This document shows, piece after piece, positions 1,127 through 47,774 of a stretch of DNA of 56,481 bases. The DNA is from a virus: IMG/VR virus record IMGVR_UViG_3300047494_000053, positions 1-56,481 of that record; one strand, given 5' to 3'. The first letter of the stretch is position 1. Each line of letters opens with the position of its first letter. The position numbers and the translations under genes are program-made. The notes under the pieces are model-generated. The model was given only the letters and a program-made list of their open reading frames with translations, was not told the origin of the DNA and ran no database searches.

Positions 1127-3748
1127 TCACGTCGTCGCGCAGGTGGCTTTTGCAGAGGTCACGGGCTGATTTGATGGCGGTGCGGCGAATGTGTCGGCGG
1201 TGCCTGCTGCATTGTAGGTGACAGCGGAGAACGTCACGCTCGCGCCCGATGGCAGGCCAGTGATCGAGGCGGAGCTGGCCGGCGCGGCAAAATCCTGATG
1301 CTGAAAAAGCGTGTAGCTGCCAGGGGAACCGATCCAGCAGAAAACCCGGTAGAAGGTCGGCGCCGGGCCCGATTGCGGCGTCCAATTCAGGAGCACCGCT
1401 CCGGTGCCGCTCGGCGCGGCCGTCAATGCAGGCAGCAACGCCGGATAGCTCGGGCCGCCCGTCACGGTGAAGGGCGCCGAGACGGCGGAATAGGTCTGCC
1501 CGAAAGCCGCCTGCATGGCGCAGGTGTTTGCGACGCCGCTGCCCGATCCGGCTTGCACTGTGGCGGCTGGCACGAGCATGCGCGTCGAGCCCGCCGGCGC
1601 CGTGGTCGAATCCGTGCCATTCCAGCCGATGGTGAAGCTAGTCGGCACCGGACCGGCCGGCTGCGACCATGTCACCAGAAGGCCGCTGTACGAGCCGTCA
1701 GGATTGTAGACATTGACCGCGGAGGCGATGACCGGCGCCGGCGGCGCGGTGGGCGTGTATTCGTAGGTGACGCAATCCGCCAGGCTTTGCGGCATAGAGC
1801 CGAACAGGTTAACGGTCGGAAACTGGAAATAGATCGGCTGGCCGACGTACTGCGGCGGCAGCGTGTATTGAAACACCTTCGACGGATCGATGCGCGCGAA
1901 AGGTGCGCCGACGGCGTGCGCGGCCGGCGCTGTGCCGTACAGCCCGCGTTCGAGGAACGTCAGGTTCGCGGTGTATTCGCCGGTCGGCACCACATTGCCG
2001 TACGCGAGCAGCTCGCCGTCGATCATGCAGAGCGTGCGGTAGGCCGCCGCATCCGCCTCTGTGGCCGTGGCCGGGATGACGCCAAGGCACTCGCTGAGGT
2101 CGATCGCCAGCGTGTTCGTGGTGTCCAGGCCGGTCGCCAGCGGCAGCGCGGCGGTGAGCGTGCCCTGAAGGCTGGGCGTCGCCGACTCGCCGATCTGGGT
2201 AAAGGTGGTGTCATCGAAAGAGACGAACACGCCGGCCCCGCCGACATTGGCGCCGCCGCTGAGGGCGATCCAGATTTCGGGCGTGCCCCCGGTCAGGGAA
2301 GGATCGGGCTGCATGATGGCGGGCGGATTGATCGGGCCCGGCGGCGTGGTGGCATTGTAAGGGGCCATGCCGGCGCCAGGCTCGAATTCCTGGATATTGG
2401 CTGTGCCGATCCCGTAGACGAACTCCTCGGCAACGAACGCCAGGTTGCCGGTGTTATCTTCGTCGACCTGCTTTATGCGCACCGGGAATTTCGACAGGCC
2501 AAGGTTCGGATCGGTCAGGGTGACAATGTCGCCCGGCAGGAGGAGCAGAAAGTAATACCCGAGCTTGAATTGATACTCGTTCCGAATGTACTGGGCCCGC
2601 TGGCCGATGAGCGCCACGGCCACACTTGCACTCTCGACGTTGCAAATCTCGGTCGAGCTGATGTTATTCGGGGCCTGCACGCCGATGTGGTCGATCGACG
2701 AGGAATCCTGCCACCGGAAAGGCGTGTCCTGGTAGGCCGGCGAATTGGCGACGCCGCCGTTCGTGGTGCGGATCGAGCAATTGAGCTGCACCTGATTGAA
2801 GCCGTCGGCCGGGTCTTTCCGATTGACGGTGACAGGCGGCGACGCCTGGCGGCCGTTCTTTTCGACAACGACAAAATCGTCAGGGCCGAGGTCATAAATG
2901 GGGGTGACGTTCGGCACGTAATTGACGCCGTGCGCGCTGATGGGCGCATCGCCCAGCGGCACCACGATAATCGCCGTGCCTGACCAGAATATCCAGAAAT
3001 TCCCGACGTTGGCCCACCGCTGCAGGATGCTTTGTACCTGCTCGGCATCCTTGAGCAGCGGCGAGACGAATATGCCGGCGGCCAGGTTGTACACCAGGAG
3101 CGTGCTGGAGCCGGCGAGGCCGCCCTCATTACAATTCTGGATGAGCGACGGGTCGAGGTTTACTCCGTAGCGCGGGTTCGTCAGGAAATCCGGGATGATG
3201 TCGCCGAAATTTGCGTCCGGGAGGTTCGTGTTGGCATTGTCGCAGTGGACGCCGGTGAAGGTGCCGAACAGCTCGAAATTGATATTCGGCAGGGTGGCGC
3301 TTCCGCCCAGGTCGAGGTTCGCGTGGGCATAGTAGGTGGTGTAGGCATAGGCCATGTCCTGGCCGTTCTCGGCGCCGTATGCCCATGGCGCCTGGTCGGC
3401 GGTGCCGGGAAAGATGCCGCCGCCGTAGCCCGCCAGCGTGGTTTCGCTAACGCCCACCCAGATGCGGCCAACGCCTGTCGTGTGGCCTGCGGTCGATCCC
3501 TCCGCCAGGGCGATCACAACCGAGGCGGTGTAATCGTTCGGCGTGTTTGACTTTCCGCCCTTCCCCCCAGACCCCTTTTTATTGTTCGTGCCCTGGAAGC
3601 CGAAATAGCCGATGCAGTTTCCGGCGATCTTTTGGGCGCCCCAGAAAATGGGGATCGGCAGGCCGTACGCGCTCGTTTGAATTTGCAGGCAGGTATAGAC
3701 CGGCGGCTTGCTCGATTTGACGCCGGTTGAGCCGCCGAGCATTCCCAT
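1127..3748 (-). CDS. Central tail fiber / host specificity protein (lambda gpJ / GTA g15-like), 873 aa
   Basis: Glycine-lysine N-terminus (GSGGKGGKS). FLTNPRYGVNLD resembles the gpJ THPRYG motif. C-terminal FN3-like repeats (LLVTWSQPAGPVPTSF, LLNWTPQSGPAPTFY). Last gene of the tip module. Confidence 0.8.
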   Translation of the reverse strand: MGMLGGSTGVKSSKPPVYTCLQIQTSAYGLPIPIFWGAQKIAGNCIGYFGFQGTNNKKGSGGKGGKSNTPNDYTASVVIALAEGSTAGHTTGVGRIWVGVSETTLAGYGGGIFPGTADQAPWAYGAENGQDMAYAYTTYYAHANLDLGGSATLPNINFELFGTFTGVHCDNANTNLPDANFGDIIPDFLTNPRYGVNLDPSLIQNCNEGGLAGSSTLLVYNLAAGIFVSPLLKDAEQVQSILQRWANVGNFWIFWSGTAIIVVPLGDAPISAHGVNYVPNVTPIYDLGPDDFVVVEKNGRQASPPVTVNRKDPADGFNQVQLNCSIRTTNGGVANSPAYQDTPFRWQDSSSIDHIGVQAPNNISSTEICNVESASVAVALIGQRAQYIRNEYQFKLGYYFLLLLPGDIVTLTDPNLGLSKFPVRIKQVDEDNTGNLAFVAEEFVYGIGTANIQEFEPGAGMAPYNATTPPGPINPPAIMQPDPSLTGGTPEIWIALSGGANVGGAGVFVSFDDTTFTQIGESATPSLQGTLTAALPLATGLDTTNTLAIDLSECLGVIPATATEADAAAYRTLCMIDGELLAYGNVVPTGEYTANLTFLERGLYGTAPAAHAVGAPFARIDPSKVFQYTLPPQYVGQPIYFQFPTVNLFGSMPQSLADCVTYEYTPTAPPAPVIASAVNVYNPDGSYSGLLVTWSQPAGPVPTSFTIGWNGTDSTTAPAGSTRMLVPAATVQAGSGSGVANTCAMQAAFGQTYSAVSAPFTVTGGPSYPALLPALTAAPSGTGAVLLNWTPQSGPAPTFYRVFCWIGSPGSYTLFQHQDFAAPASSASITGLPSGASVTFSAVTYNAAGTADTFAAPPSNQPVTSAKATCATT

Positions 3749-3783
3749 GCAGGTTCGCCTATCGAAATATGAACGGGGCTCTG

Positions 3784-4209
3784 ATGCCGGACTGGAAAAT
3801 CACGCGGTGGTCGCCAGGTCCGGAGACCGAATGGGACCGGCTCGCGTGCAGGTGCGGTCGGCTACCGGAAATGCTGGAGGCGCCGCGCGCGTTCCAGGTT
3901 TCCTGCAGCCGCTGCGGGCGGCAAGGCCCCCAGAGCCGCAGCAAGGCCGCTGCAGCGCGCGCGTGGCGCGCCGATATCTGCGGCTTCCCGGTGACCTGCG
4001 ACCCGATGAACATGCTGGAGGTCGAGATACCGGGCGAGATACCGGCCGGCATGGCGCCAGAGGGCGCGTTCTTCCAAATCGTGAAGGCCGAGGACGGCAA
4101 GGTCTGGCTCACCGGGCCGGTGGCCGCGCCGACGCATGTGGCGAACGGGCAGGCCAGAACCCAGAAAAGCGAAAGGGCCATCCCAGCGTCCCGGAATGGC
4201 CCCCTCTGA
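3784..4209 (+). CDS. Lar-like zinc-ribbon protein (restriction-alleviation family-like N-terminus) with C-terminal extension, 141 aa
   Basis: CRCG-x17-CSRCGRQGP...AAAARAW matches the Lar pattern CxxC...CxxCGxxGP...AxxAWN. GC3 of this frame is about 85% by hand count. Encoded opposite to the tail operon. The ORF track starts at TTG 3727; ATG 3784 is preferred. Confidence 0.5.
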   Translation: MPDWKITRWSPGPETEWDRLACRCGRLPEMLEAPRAFQVSCSRCGRQGPQSRSKAAAARAWRADICGFPVTCDPMNMLEVEIPGEIPAGMAPEGAFFQIVKAEDGKVWLTGPVAAPTHVANGQARTQKSERAIPASRNGPL

Positions 4210-36170: not shown

Positions 36171-36346
36171 TGCCCATGTTCACCATCGAAGTATTCCGCG
36201 GCGGCGCATGGACCCTGCGTGGCCAAGTGGACAGCACGCAGGAAGCCGTCCTGGCCGCGCTTCCCGGTTATTGCCTGCAATACCCGCATCGCGCGCTGCT
36301 GGATGGCGTGGTGGTGGGCGAGTGTCAGCCGAAGGGGCGCGTTTGA
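36170..36346 (+). CDS. Hypothetical protein, 58 aa
   Basis: ATG overlaps the upstream TGA (TGATG). Sequence MPMFTIEVFRGGAWTLRGQV... Confidence 0.45.
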   Translation: MPMFTIEVFRGGAWTLRGQVDSTQEAVLAALPGYCLQYPHRALLDGVVVGECQPKGRV

Positions 36347-36347
36347 T

Positions 36348-37319
36348 GTGCCCCGCGCTTACTACAATGAACGCGACAAAAAAGCGGCGCAGCATTTGCG
36401 CAACGCCATTTCAGCGGGACTTGTTTTCGACGGCGATGTTGACGATCGAGACGTGCGCGACGTCCTTCCAAGCGACCTCGACGGATACGATCAACACCAT
36501 TTCTTTGCCGGCATCGGTATCTGGAGCCTCGCCCTTCGCTGGGCCGGATGGCCTGACGATCGCCCGGTCTGGACCGGCTCCTGCCCATGCCAGCCTTTCA
36601 GCGGCGCAGGCAAAGGGCTTGGGTTTGCTGATGAGCGGCACGTATGGCCGTTCTGGCACTGGCTCATCGCGCAGCGAGGCCCTGACACGATCTTTGGAGA
36701 ACAGGTTGCGAGTGCTGACGGCCTCGCGTGGTTCGACCTTGTATCGTCTGACCTGGAAGCATCGGGCTACGCCATCGGGGCGAGTGATCAGTGCTCTGCG
36801 GGCGTTGGCGCTCCGAACATCAGGCAGCGGCTCTACTGGGTGGCCGACGCCGACCGGCAACGATGCGCTGAAGGGGGGCAAAATAACCCCGCGCCCCGGC
36901 ATGATCTGTCTGACGGCAGCGGCGCAGATGGCCGAGTGGTCAACGCCGGCGGCATCGGACGGCGAAAGGTCCGGCACGATCACGGATCAGATGACCGGGC
37001 AATCTTTGACGCAGCAAGCCACGTTGGCCGGCTGGGCGACGCCCACGACACGGCATTACCGCACGCCGAATCACCGGACCCTGCGGGAGCGCGGCGGGGA
37101 GGCGAAGGGCGAGCAGCTTCAGAACCAAGTCGCCCACCTGATCCCTGGCGCGAGCTTGAATGGATTGCCTGCCGAGACGGAAAGCAAAGGCCTACTAAAC
37201 CCGGTCTTTTCCCTCTGGCTCCAAGGCATCCCGGAGACGTGGGCATCCTGCGAACCGCGGGAAACGCGATCAACCCGTACGTCGCGGAAACCTTCATCCG
37301 CGCGTTCCTCGAAACATAG
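36348..37319 (+). CDS. DNA (cytosine-5) methyltransferase, frame-0 reading (323 aa from GTG 36348; alternative ATG 36303)
   Basis: AYYNERDKKAAQHLRN N-terminus, HFFAGIGIW (motif I), GSCPCQPFSGAGK (motif IV), IFGEQV (motif VI), APNIRQRLYWVA (motif VIII) and GNAINPYVAETFIRAF (motif X). The central 36860-37230 segment looks non-coding in this frame (see findings). Confidence 0.7.
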   Translation: MPRAYYNERDKKAAQHLRNAISAGLVFDGDVDDRDVRDVLPSDLDGYDQHHFFAGIGIWSLALRWAGWPDDRPVWTGSCPCQPFSGAGKGLGFADERHVWPFWHWLIAQRGPDTIFGEQVASADGLAWFDLVSSDLEASGYAIGASDQCSAGVGAPNIRQRLYWVADADRQRCAEGGQNNPAPRHDLSDGSGADGRVVNAGGIGRRKVRHDHGSDDRAIFDAASHVGRLGDAHDTALPHAESPDPAGARRGGEGRAASEPSRPPDPWRELEWIACRDGKQRPTKPGLFPLAPRHPGDVGILRTAGNAINPYVAETFIRAFLET

Positions 37320-37335
37320 GCAGGAGGCGGCATGA
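36841..37335 (+). other. Alternative +1 reading frame inside the C5-methyltransferase gene, carrying TRD/motif-IX-like sequence
   Basis: Part of ORF 36208..37335. Contains WPTP (36841), WSTP (36937), WATP (37033) and LNPVFSLWLQGIPETW (37195-37242). GC3 is higher than frame 0 across about 36900-37230. Its stop forms ATGA with the next gene. Confidence 0.45.
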
Positions 37336-44400: not shown

Positions 44401-45031
44401 GGATCTGTCTCGATCGACGGCAAAGCCACGGTGGCGCCACGTGAAGCGCGGCACGGTCTACACCGAGCTTGCGACCGCCGAACTGCAAATGTCCGGGACG
44501 TTGGTCGATGGCGCCACCATGGTCATTTATCAGGGCGACGACGGGCGCATCTGGGTTCGCGAAATAGGAGAATTCACTGACGGGCGCTTCGTTCCCGCTG
44601 ATGGCGAAGCTCATGGCCGCTTTCAAAATGAGCGAGTTGGAGACTGGCATTTTCGGGTCAGGCCGTGCCGGGAGCCATCACTTTGCGGGAAATTTCTCGG
44701 ATGGTGCGCCCGCACTCCTGATTTGGGCACAGGGCCTACCGGCGTTACGGGTGACCAGCGCCAGGTGCATTTTCACTTTGCGGACACTGCCGAGGAATGC
44801 TTTGCCTTCCTCAAACGCGAGGTCCTCACGCCGGCTATGCGCTCCGGCGACCATGTCCATCACTGGCCCACCGGAGAAGATTGGGTGCTCGGCCGCGTCG
44901 AGGATGAGCACGTCTATCCGATGGGCTGGCCGCCAAGCCGAGCACTGCGCGCCGATTGCATGGTCATCAAGCCCTGCACCGATGAGGAGCACGCGAAGGC
45001 CGCGGCAGATGGCGAAAGGCTCCCCCGATAA
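44384..45031 (+). CDS. DUF1653-like domain protein, 215 aa
   Basis: GTG start. RWRHVKRGTVYTELATAELQMSGTLVDGATMVIYQGDDGRIWVREIGEFTDGRF fits the DUF1653 pattern. Confidence 0.55.
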   Translation: MESQTEDLSRSTAKPRWRHVKRGTVYTELATAELQMSGTLVDGATMVIYQGDDGRIWVREIGEFTDGRFVPADGEAHGRFQNERVGDWHFRVRPCREPSLCGKFLGWCARTPDLGTGPTGVTGDQRQVHFHFADTAEECFAFLKREVLTPAMRSGDHVHHWPTGEDWVLGRVEDEHVYPMGWPPSRALRADCMVIKPCTDEEHAKAAADGERLPR

Positions 45032-45258
45032 TGATGACCGTGCTCGCCACGCGCGACGGCGCCACCTACGAATTCGGCAGCAACGCAAACGAGTTTCTCG
45101 ATGCGAAGATGATAATTATGGCGCTGACGAAGGGCGGCTATTCGACGGCATTCGTGAAGCCAGGCTCGCGCCCGGAACGCACCGCCGCGCCGGTGACACC
45201 AGAGGAGCGCGAGGCCATGGCGGCTATCACCCAGAGCGTCACGAGGACCATGGGGTGA
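45031..45258 (+). CDS. Hypothetical protein, 75 aa
   Basis: ORF track. Confidence 0.5.
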   Translation: MMTVLATRDGATYEFGSNANEFLDAKMIIMALTKGGYSTAFVKPGSRPERTAAPVTPEEREAMAAITQSVTRTMG

Positions 45259-47774
45259 TGCTCGACCGCGTGGCCTATCTCAATTTTTTGCAAAGCAAGT
45301 TCTGCTTTCAGCAGCAGCATGGATTCGAGGTCGATCAATCGGCCATGCATCCGTCGCTGTCACCGCACCAGCGAGACATAATTCAATGGGCGTGCCGGCT
45401 GGGGCGCGCCGCTATTTTCGCATCCTTCGGCCTCGGCAAGACCCGAATGCAGCTTGATTTGCTTCGTCTCATTCTGGAGCGCCACCCCGGCCGCGCGCTT
45501 ATAATCATGCCGCTCGGCGTTCGTCAGGAATTCATTCGGGATGCCGCCGCGCTCGGCGTCCCAGTTAGCTTCGTCCGCACGAGCGACGAAACAAAGGGCA
45601 CCGGGGTTTACCTGACCAATTATGAAAGCGTGCGGGATGGAAAGCTCGACCCGACCTTGTTCGACGCGGTGAGCCTTGATGAGGCCAGCGTGTTGCGGAG
45701 CTTTGGCAGCAAGACCTACCAGAAATTCTTGACGCTATTCGCTGCGACGCGCTTTCGCTTCGTCGCTACGGCCACGCCCAGCCCAAACAGCTACAAGGAG
45801 CTGATCCATTATGCTGGGTTCCTCGGCGTCATGGACACTGGCCAGGCGCTGACACGGTTCTTCCAGCGCGATAGCGAAAAGGCCAATAACCTGACGCTCT
45901 ACCCGCACATGAAGCGAGAATTCTTTTTATGGCTGCACTCATGGGCCGCGTTTGTACAGAAGCCGTCGGACCTCGGGCACAGCGACGCAGGATACGACAT
46001 GCCGCCCTTGATCGTGCGGTGGCATGAAGTGCCGGCCGTCGACCTACGCGGCGGCGTCGACCGCGACGGCCAACATTTGATGATCAAGGATGCCGCCCTC
46101 GGCCTGCCGCAGGCGGCGGCGGAGAAACGCCTCAGCATTCGAGCGCGCGTGGCATGTATGGCCGGCATCGTGGCGGCGGCGCCCGATGATCATTTCATCG
46201 TCTGGCACGATCTTGAAGACGAGCGCCGCGCCATCAAGGCGGCGGTACCCGACGCCGTCGAGGTCTACGGCTCACAGGACCTCGACGAACGCGAGCGGCG
46301 CATCCTGGCATTTGCTGACGGCGAAAGCAGGATCCTGGCGACAAAACCATCGCTAAGCGGGTCTGGCTGCAACCTCCAGCGTCATTGTCACCGGGCCGTG
46401 TTTCTCGGCGTGGGCTACAAGTTTAATGACTTTATTCAGGCCATTCATCGCATCCTTCGCTTTCAACAGCCCCAACAATGCGAGATCGACCTAATATTCT
46501 GCGAAACCGAGCGCGAGGTCCGCCGCGAACTGGAACGCAAATGGCACGAGCATATGGAGCTAACAGCCATCATGAGCGATCTTATCCGAGAGCACGGCCT
46601 GTCCACGCTCGGCATCGAAGCGGAGCTGGCTCGCACCATCGGGATTAACCGCATCGAGGAATCGACCGAGCATTACCTAGTTGCCCACAACGATTGCGTA
46701 ATCGAGGCGGCGAGCATGCAGACCGACAGCGTAGACCTGATCGTAACGAGCATCCCATTCGGAAATCACTACGAATATACGACCAGCTATGAGGACTTCG
46801 GGCACAACGACAATAACATTCGGTTCTTCGAGCAAATGGACTTCCTGACGCCGAACCTGCTGCGCATCCTTCGACCCGGCCGTGTGGCAGCCATCCACGT
46901 CAAGGATCGCGTGAAATTCGGCAACGTCACCGGTCTCGGTATGGCGACGATTGATCCATTTCATGCGGACTGCATCGCCCACTATCGGCGCCACGGATTT
47001 GCCTATTGCGGCATGATCACGATCAATACCGACGTGGTGCGCGAGAACAATCAGACCTATCGCCTTGGTTGGTCCGAACAGTGCAAGGATGGCTCCAAAA
47101 TGGGCGTCGGCTGCCCAGAATACGTGCTGCTGCTCCGCAAGCTGCCGACTGACACCAGCACGGCTTATGCCGATGTTCCGGTGGTCAAAAGCAAGGCCGA
47201 GTACACGCGAGGCCGGTGGCAAATCGACGCACATGCTTTCTGGCGGAGCAGCGGCGATCGCTTCCTGACGGCATCTGAGCTGGAGGGTTTGGGTCCGGAC
47301 CGCTTGGCCAAAGCCTTCCCTGCTATGACGTTGCGCACGATCTATGACTTCCGAGAGCATGTGAAGCTGGCGGAGGCGCTTGACGACGCCAACCGACTGC
47401 CCAGCACCTTCGGCGCTGTGCTGCCCGGTGCCCACGATGCGTGGACATGGTTCGACGTAAATCGAATGAGAACACTGAATGGCGAGCAGGCCAGCCGTAA
47501 TCTGGTCCAGCACATTTGCCCGCTCCAGTTCGATATTGTGGACCGTCTTATTGAGCGGTTCACCAACCGTGGCGAGATCGTTTTTGATCCGTTCGGCGGT
47601 CTATTCACGGTGCCATTCTGTGCGATCAAACTGGGCCGCTTTGGGAGGTCCGTCGAGCTCGCCGCGGATTACTACAAGGACGGGCTTCGCTATCTTCGCA
47701 GCGCGGCCCGGGACGCCGCGATGCCAACGCTGTTCGGGTTGGAGGCGGCTGATCGGCCGCCGGAGGCCGCGTGA
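45258..47774 (+). CDS. SNF2/DEAD-like helicase fused to a beta-class (N4/N6-type) DNA methyltransferase, 838 aa
   Basis: Helicase motifs: FGLGKT (I), SLDEAS (II), ATATPSPN (III), QAIHRILRFQQ (VI). Methyltransferase motifs: DLIVTSIPFG (motif IV variant) followed by VFDPFGGLFT (motif I). ORF 44601..47774 trimmed to ATG 45258 (TGATG overlap). Confidence 0.8.
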   Translation: MLDRVAYLNFLQSKFCFQQQHGFEVDQSAMHPSLSPHQRDIIQWACRLGRAAIFASFGLGKTRMQLDLLRLILERHPGRALIIMPLGVRQEFIRDAAALGVPVSFVRTSDETKGTGVYLTNYESVRDGKLDPTLFDAVSLDEASVLRSFGSKTYQKFLTLFAATRFRFVATATPSPNSYKELIHYAGFLGVMDTGQALTRFFQRDSEKANNLTLYPHMKREFFLWLHSWAAFVQKPSDLGHSDAGYDMPPLIVRWHEVPAVDLRGGVDRDGQHLMIKDAALGLPQAAAEKRLSIRARVACMAGIVAAAPDDHFIVWHDLEDERRAIKAAVPDAVEVYGSQDLDERERRILAFADGESRILATKPSLSGSGCNLQRHCHRAVFLGVGYKFNDFIQAIHRILRFQQPQQCEIDLIFCETEREVRRELERKWHEHMELTAIMSDLIREHGLSTLGIEAELARTIGINRIEESTEHYLVAHNDCVIEAASMQTDSVDLIVTSIPFGNHYEYTTSYEDFGHNDNNIRFFEQMDFLTPNLLRILRPGRVAAIHVKDRVKFGNVTGLGMATIDPFHADCIAHYRRHGFAYCGMITINTDVVRENNQTYRLGWSEQCKDGSKMGVGCPEYVLLLRKLPTDTSTAYADVPVVKSKAEYTRGRWQIDAHAFWRSSGDRFLTASELEGLGPDRLAKAFPAMTLRTIYDFREHVKLAEALDDANRLPSTFGAVLPGAHDAWTWFDVNRMRTLNGEQASRNLVQHICPLQFDIVDRLIERFTNRGEIVFDPFGGLFTVPFCAIKLGRFGRSVELAADYYKDGLRYLRSAARDAAMPTLFGLEAADRPPEAA

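Follow-up and report, generated by a model that had tools for sequence, protein, structure and literature searches.

Two overlapping genes in a tailed-phage genome most likely encode a two-subunit C5-cytosine DNA methyltransferase

The IMG/VR virus record IMGVR_UViG_3300047494_000053 was analysed over a stretch of 56,481 nucleotides (nt), which we call the window. Its plus strand carries two overlapping genes, most likely for the two subunits of one C5-cytosine DNA methyltransferase. The outer gene, alpha, lies in frame 0 (36348..37319; GTG start at 36348, TAG stop at 37317-37319; 323 amino acids (aa)) and encodes the large catalytic domain of such an enzyme. The second gene, beta, is nested in alpha in the +1 frame (36625..37335, with a putative start) and would comprise 236 codons from the TTG at 36625 or 234 from the ATG at 36631; the +1 frame itself can be read directly from the list of open reading frames (ORFs) as open from 36208 to 37335. 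We found that both frames are open and under purifying selection throughout the family, in a pattern that changes along the gene. We consider it likely that beta has a translation start of its own and that its product pairs with alpha in a heterodimeric methyltransferase, in which it acts as the small domain that recognises DNA. An earlier note on this DNA had described methyltransferase motifs in an A-B-A order of two reading frames and had listed five explanations; one of them, genuine dual coding, is borne out by the depletion of stop codons and by selection on both frames.

Both reading frames are conserved across the family

Loci were collected in two sets. The first consisted of 87 loci from 80 viral contigs retrieved with an alpha profile, and the second of 83 further loci, namely 80 bacterial genome loci found through a beta peptide pattern and three from additional phages. 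Frame 0 was uninterrupted in 86 of the 87 loci, and the +1 frame was open for 235-410 codons in every one of them, compared with only 34-136 codons for the +2 frame. Beta also lay at +1 to alpha in all 83 further loci, and alpha was open across the beta region in 80 of these. Collectively, beta was at +1 to alpha in 170/170 loci and alpha was uninterrupted in 166. The loci derive from cultured phages, bacterial genomes and metagenomes, including N15, K1G, SEN5, Jacopo and OwlsT2W, and among the 170 examined beta was met only inside alpha genes. Phages of Proteobacteria, Firmicutes and Actinobacteria share the two-frame layout at an amino-acid identity of 50% or less. At least 8,000 alpha homologues were found at E 1e-10 or better, and the beta profile was matched by 26,659 cluster representatives.

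Over its full length, the frame-0 protein aligned with the methyltransferase annotated in Salmonella phage SEN5 (48% identity, E 4e-91), and this alignment takes in the C-terminal block WxxxDWxxCRDGKxRPxxPG...GNAI. The +1 peptide had no match in the annotated SEN5 methyltransferase protein. By tblastn, it matched the same DNA of SEN5, AeroV_348, BcepC6B, N15 and about 100 other phages (best E 1e-18), at coordinates that fall in the +1 frame of those phage methyltransferase genes. The open +1 ORFs of SEN5 (280 aa) and AeroV_348 (285 aa) carry the same motifs. The earlier note had reasoned that homologues matching the frame-0 protein over its whole length, with a closed +1 frame, would speak for coincidence; full-length matches to frame 0 do exist, but the +1 frame of these homologues is open.

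The stop-codon, entropy and start-site tests were made on 82 distinct genes, and the expected number of stops was obtained by resampling synonymous codons with one protein held fixed. Over 36625-37250 the +1 frame contained no stop codon, against about 250 expected. Frame 0 likewise contained none in the spacer at 36830-37125, against 280 expected and a minimum of 240 over 200 resamplings, so that frame 0 is kept open there despite its unconserved amino-acid sequence. Stop counts in the +2 frame matched expectation. The +1 translation held zero to five W-x-T-P occurrences per gene; frame 0 had none, and +2 had three over all the genes. This two-frame pattern is far beyond chance.

Selection was measured in two ways, by codon-phase nucleotide entropy in the 82 genes and by comparison of 24 phylogenetically disjoint pairs of 70-97% identity. 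From 36348 to 36625, 69% of changed codons were synonymous in frame 0 and 9% in +1, which is selection on frame 0 only. In the 5' dual-coded segment (36625..36830), where alpha motifs VI-VIII lie over the beta sequence SLxxRLxxxTASxGSTLYxLTWKxxxTPSGRxxxALRASxRRTS, the values were 45% and 29%; both frames are selected, and the frame-0 third-position entropy drops from 1.2-1.7 to 0.76-1.1. The central segment (36830..37125) holds the beta W-x-T-P region in +1 and an Arg/Gly/Asp-rich, unconserved open spacer in frame 0. Here only 8% of changed codons were synonymous in frame 0 against 34% in +1, with changes mostly at +1 third positions, and selection is on +1 only. Alignments between motif VIII and the C-terminal block were gap-ridden and unconserved in frame 0 and conserved at W-x-T-P islands in +1. 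In the 3' dual-coded segment (37125..37250), alpha WxELEWIxCRDGKxRPxxPGxFPL lies over the motif-IX-like sequence of beta, and both frames are again selected (40% synonymous in frame 0, 46% in +1). Substitution rates in this segment, 0.057-0.126 per site, are the lowest of the gene, and the entropy pattern over 37189-37219 is of the +1 type. From 37250 to the end, selection is on frame 0 only (41% against 15%), and the frame-0 third-position pattern is back at 37260..37316, with an entropy of 1.24 and 0.289 differences per site.

Taken together, phase-specific entropy, synonymous fractions and stop depletion demonstrate protein-level selection on both frames. The homologue alignment that had been proposed as a check shows both frames staying open, with purifying selection on +1 in the central segment. 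The A-B-A order described earlier is real, for the motifs as well as for selection, but in place of switch points it has two dual-coded transitions, about 70 and 40 codons long. The first switch had been placed at a G6 tract (36873..36878), whereas the +1 constraint begins near 36625, about 210 nt upstream of the tract, and overlaps motifs VI-VIII; the tract is present and marks no functional switch.

Some individual loci depart from the layout in the window. The number of W-x-T-P repeats (0-5) correlates with alpha length in the 82 genes (r = 0.54). In one metagenomic relative (L006, 2997-4239) alpha and beta span exactly the same extent, with 412 aa each, and additional W-x-T-P repeats in beta are paralleled by a longer alpha spacer. 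A Consotaella salsifontis locus (L090, 1796-2971) has an in-frame stop in the alpha spacer, leaving ORFs 1796-2389 and 2495-2971 in the same frame, and its nested beta (1818-2951) is intact; this locus is either a pseudogene or a naturally three-part enzyme. At a locus in a Mesorhizobium metagenome-assembled genome (L141, 1893-3683), beta is without its usual stop and extends, at 596 aa, into the normally downstream gene. In Gordonia phage GordTnk2 (L171, 1294-1833), an annotated 179-aa 'methyltransferase' lying among lysis genes matches alpha residues 65-166 and seems to be a truncated or minimal form.

The products of alpha and beta

The frame-0 motifs named in the earlier note were all present on direct reading: motif I HFFAGIG (36498-36518), motif IV PCQPFS (36585-36602), motif VI GEQV (36696-36707), motif VIII RQRLYWV (36822-36842) and motif X GNAINPYVAETF, which is followed by a C-terminal helix (37260..37316) and lies where only frame 0 is selected. 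PF00145 matched alpha over residues 75-168 with 29.6 bits against a cut-off of 22, and a profile of 44 homologues matched M.HhaI residues 71-178 at E 4e-15. The alpha sequences SCPCQPFS, GEQV and RQRLYWV align with PCQAFS, ENV and QKRERIY of M.HhaI, and motifs IV, VI and VIII were invariant or nearly so among the 44 homologues. HFFAGIG aligned weakly with motif I of M.HhaI (2.8 bits). GNAI and its helix (motif X) are conserved and confidently modelled, with a predicted local distance difference test score (pLDDT) of 92-94, and fall outside the Pfam and PDB alignments.

In the AlphaFold2 model of alpha, residues 1-175 and 300-323 had a pLDDT of mostly 85-97, with two local dips to about 55, and residues 176-294 mostly less than 50. 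Foldseek matched this model to M.HhaI and M.HaeIII over about 175-195 columns; the large domains of both enzymes match the folded part of alpha, including PCQ, E-x-V and Q/R-x-R. Their target-recognition domain and motif IX are in the same chain, unlike in alpha, where neither was found in conserved form: residues 176-294 are unconserved in alignments and of low pLDDT. A confident large domain combined with this low-pLDDT stretch suggests that alpha is a complete large domain with a loop in the place of the small domain, and the spacer, of about 100 residues, is predicted to be disordered.

The predicted beta product contains the peptide GLLNPVFSLWLQGIPETWASCEPR. As the earlier note had reported, the +1 frame carries three W-x-T-P repeats (WPTP at 36841, WSTP at 36937 and WATP at 37033) and the motif-IX-like LNPVFSLWLQGIPETW at 37195-37242, of which the family form is LNPxFSxWLQGxPxxW, with the spacing of motif IX. 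Beta matched PHROGs 1008 and 31772, which were built from annotated phage ORFs labelled 'DNA methyltransferase', and matched none of the Pfam and NCBIfam models. The only confident part of the model of beta alone is a helix and hairpin over STLYRLTWK...ALRA, where the pLDDT reaches 94.

A candidate internal ribosome-binding site and start cluster for beta lies at 36612..36633, and its sequence in the window is AAAGGG ... TTG CTG ATG. Across the family, the consensus upstream of beta is AAAGGAG, a 6-nt spacer and TTG. A +1 start codon was found at columns 36619-36634 in 69 of the 82 genes, and it was ATG in 42. The cluster coincides in position with the onset of the +1 constraint. The frame-0 Phe codon at 36624 was TTT in 55 genes and TTC in 7, compared with a TTT share of 20% of Phe codons in the frame-0-only parts, and it is the TTT form that creates the +1 TTG. 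In N15, the nested ORF listed for gp58 opens at this cluster with TTG ATG ATG.

Proposed mechanism and competing explanations

In our proposal, frame 0 would be translated into alpha, providing the S-adenosylmethionine-binding catalytic large domain with motifs I-VIII and X. A sequence-unconstrained, predicted disordered and stop-free loop of alpha would replace the target-recognition domain and motif IX of single-chain enzymes. Beta would probably be translated from the internal TTG or ATG at 36625-36631, after the Shine-Dalgarno-like AAAGG(A)G, as a protein of about 235 aa with a conserved N-terminal hairpin region, the W-x-T-P repeats and the motif-IX-like sequence. It may then bind alpha and contribute the small domain for DNA recognition in trans, just as motif IX comes from the beta chain in M.EcoHK31I. 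In C5-cytosine methyltransferases the small domain consists of the variable region and motif IX and makes all specific DNA contacts (PMC3404938). We infer the independent initiation of beta, its association with alpha, and its role as target-recognition domain plus motif IX. A stronger form of the proposal, by which a very large clade of orphan phage enzymes takes its entire small domain in trans from a nested +1 gene, the variable region of alpha being a mere spacer that the overlap keeps open, seems to us evenly poised between right and wrong.

Several observations weigh against this proposal. The beta profile matched no PDB sequence at E values up to 10, and AlphaFold2 gave a poor model of beta alone (pLDDT 63, predicted template modelling score 0.24). 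With hhalign, beta fell in register on RKLHPRECARVMGYPDSY of a hand-entered M.HhaI sequence, at a non-significant E of 0.097; PF00145 failed to extend onto the beta motif in conceptual fusions, and the 'motif IX' of beta is, as judged from sequence, a resemblance only. Published descriptions put the target-recognition domain of M.EcoHK31I in alpha. As for initiation, 13 of the 82 genes have no start codon in the cluster, and many homologues have a weak Shine-Dalgarno-like element or none. Moreover, +1 stops are avoided over the roughly 160 nt upstream of the cluster as well (1 against 39 expected in the 82 genes), so some beta chains may start earlier.

The lack of any significant match between beta and solved methyltransferases, Pfam or NCBIfam models would also be expected if beta were an independent overprinted protein with a function unrelated to methylation, such as DNA binding or anti-defence, and alpha acted alone or with a host factor. 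Among the 120 best beta matches and 10 long beta-like proteins, we found no single-chain relative in which a beta-type domain shares the frame of PF00145, that is, no fusion among the listed matches to tie beta to the methyltransferase fold. However, alpha is without the conserved target-recognition domain and motif IX that monomeric enzymes have in their small domain, beta occurs only inside alpha genes in the loci examined, its C-terminal motif is spaced like motif IX, and the precedent of M.EcoHK31I shares the layout. We therefore regard an overprinted protein of unrelated function as unlikely. Still less probable in our view is a single programmed +1 frameshift, or transcriptional slippage, in the 5' dual-coded segment that would fuse the N-terminal half of alpha to beta, alongside or instead of free beta. 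The avoidance of +1 stops upstream of the cluster and the 13 genes without a cluster start codon would fit such a fusion. On the other hand, no slippery site or homopolymer is conserved, the fusion product would be without motif X, and the +1 amino-acid constraint starts at the start-codon cluster and not at a downstream junction. The listed nested ORF of N15 begins at the cluster too, and beta of M.EcoHK31I is separately initiated (PMC2836561).

Two programmed ribosomal frameshifts, from frame 0 to +1 and back, would yield a single canonical chain, and the order of motifs across the frames (I-VIII, W-x-T-P, motif-IX-like, X) does mimic a canonical enzyme. The earlier note had offered this explanation. 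Frame 0 is nevertheless open through the central segment in 82/82 genes, with no stops against about 280 expected, and this counts against frameshifting because the product of a double frameshift would not need an open frame 0. Dual coding extends over both transition zones, and the G6 tract lacks conservation. The conceptual fusions suggested as a check did no better against PF00145, either in score or in coverage: frame 0 scored 29.6 bits, the 0/+1/0 product 27.4 and the 0/+1 product 26.3. A programmed ribosomal frameshift gene was rejected as a class for this locus, with no conserved slippery site and frame 0 open to its end in all 82 genes, and we hold the double frameshift to be very improbable. 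An artefact or recent accident is hardly credible. The G6 tract does exist in the window, and assembly indels, a recently compensated frameshift or G6 phase variation had all been considered. Yet the layout is identical in 170 independent loci, including the reference genomes of N15 and K1G, and its recurrence across three phyla at 50% identity or less does not fit an assembly error or a recently compensated event. Phase variation at the tract fares no better, since the interval is free of homopolymers of 5 or more in 62 of the 82 homologues; a phase-variable methyltransferase was rejected on this ground, and both frames are open regardless of the tract. The separately initiated beta subunit remains our preferred explanation.

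Genomic setting, annotation and comparison with known systems

The window is a tailed-phage genome, with a large terminase, portal, head protein or protease, tape-measure and tail protein on the minus strand and a helicase on the plus strand. The methyltransferase sits amid small early genes with no adjoining restriction enzyme evident, which makes it an orphan phage enzyme of the early/replication module. The stretch 44601-47771 encodes a helicase-like protein of 1,057 aa (PHROG 16), whose C-terminal part is a weaker match to the methyltransferase family phrog_67. Beta stops 16 nt past the alpha stop in the window, compared with 5-74 nt before it in most homologues. Other local features noted earlier were also found, namely the G6 tract, the ATGA overlap between the +1 stop and the start of the next gene (37332-37335) and an AGGAGG downstream of the frame-0 stop (37322-37327). 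The sequence CGCGGGAAAC at the second transition is present too, at 37256-37265, one base away from where it had been placed. The hand-counted third-position GC was reproduced, with 0.60 for frame 0 and 0.78 for +1 over 36900-37020, and 0.80 and 0.59, respectively, over the last 90 nt. At TGATGTG (36344-36350) the stop of the upstream ORF, a +1 ATG (36346) and the alpha GTG (36348) overlap, and a ribosome initiating at this ATG could yield a 329-aa +1 product in the window. Such a product is no family feature, as 181 +1 stops fall in the first 115 nt over the 82 genes, in most homologues.

Annotation of these loci is uneven. In an Acidocella metagenome-assembled genome (L003, 2910-3926), the NCBI annotation has only the +1 ORF (3001-3900) and no methyltransferase. 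The JGI call on the window contig is a 144-aa +1 fragment (P0001; window 36901-37335). None of the 120 best-scoring matches was identical to the frame-0 protein (best 74%), which suggests that frame 0 may not have been annotated as a single gene. Because annotation pipelines pick only one of the two frames, either the catalytic subunit or its partner ends up missing or labelled hypothetical. If beta is the specificity subunit, prediction or engineering of the target site would need both chains. The family is a deep and well-sampled case of long-term dual coding, with about 110 codons selected in both frames, and is useful for the study of overlapping-gene evolution. If the small domain is indeed given in trans, few overlapping gene pairs of bacteriophages would be longer or more widespread, thousands of entries annotated as monomeric methyltransferases, or as 'hypothetical protein' in the case of beta, would be halves of heterodimers, and variation in the number of W-x-T-P repeats could be a route to new specificities.

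Similar nested pairs can be recognised in annotated phages. K1G gp34/gp35 consists of a homologous alpha and a homologous +1 nested ORF, both annotated 'DNA methyltransferase', and gp56/gp57 of Paenibacillus phage Jacopo is the same nested pair, again with both members annotated (beta profile to gp57: hhalign 98%, E 2e-14). The annotated nested pairs join PHROG 363 with PHROGs 1008 and 31772, and identity of the K1G and Jacopo pairs to the window is 50% or less. Mycobacterium phage OwlsT2W gp71 contains an unannotated nested ORF that matches the beta profile (hhalign 96%, E 3e-9), and the nested ORF in N15 gp58 is likewise unannotated. In our searches of the literature for phage cytosine methyltransferases with frameshifting or overlap, no paper on the nested gene of this family came up. 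The Paenibacillus phage paper gives two methyltransferase genes without comment, and we found no functional statement on the annotated pairs; the annotation 'Mte8-like protein' proved an uninformative lead.

Full embedding of one gene in another, with products that act together, has a precedent in Rz/Rz1 of lambda, where one spanin gene lies wholly in the +1 frame of the other and the products form one complex. That pair differs in its lysis function, in its much shorter embedded gene and in having no homology to the methyltransferase pair. Among methyltransferases, the subunits of M.AquI come from adjacent, non-nested genes. M.AquI is a natural heterodimer split around the variable region, with motifs IX and X on the small subunit (PMC3404938). 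In the window, by contrast, motif X remains on alpha.

The nested two-polypeptide layout of M.EcoHK31I was reportedly described in 1995, and Lee et al. are said to have given in that year subunits of 309 and 176 aa, comparable to 323 and about 235 aa here. Compared by published description only, M.EcoHK31I resembles the pair in the window as a two-polypeptide C5-cytosine methyltransferase with beta nested in alpha in another frame. The alpha gene of M.EcoHK31I contains the whole of beta in a different reading frame, motifs I-VIII and X are on alpha and motif IX on beta, activity needs the association of both chains, and internal Met codons in the beta frame serve as start sites (PMC2836561; PMC3404938). 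M.EcoHK31I, from E. coli HK31, recognises YGGCCR and is part of a restriction-modification system, whereas the enzyme in the window is a phage orphan. According to published accounts, alpha of M.EcoHK31I carries the target-recognition domain; here the conserved W-x-T-P region is in beta, and the variable region of alpha is unconserved and predicted to be disordered. In summary, the conserved nested gene pair is real and widespread, and its principle is already known from M.EcoHK31I, so that it represents no new mechanism. It is under-appreciated how broad the family is, how far the overlap extends and that the recognition domain probably lies on beta, and these features cause systematic mis-annotation.

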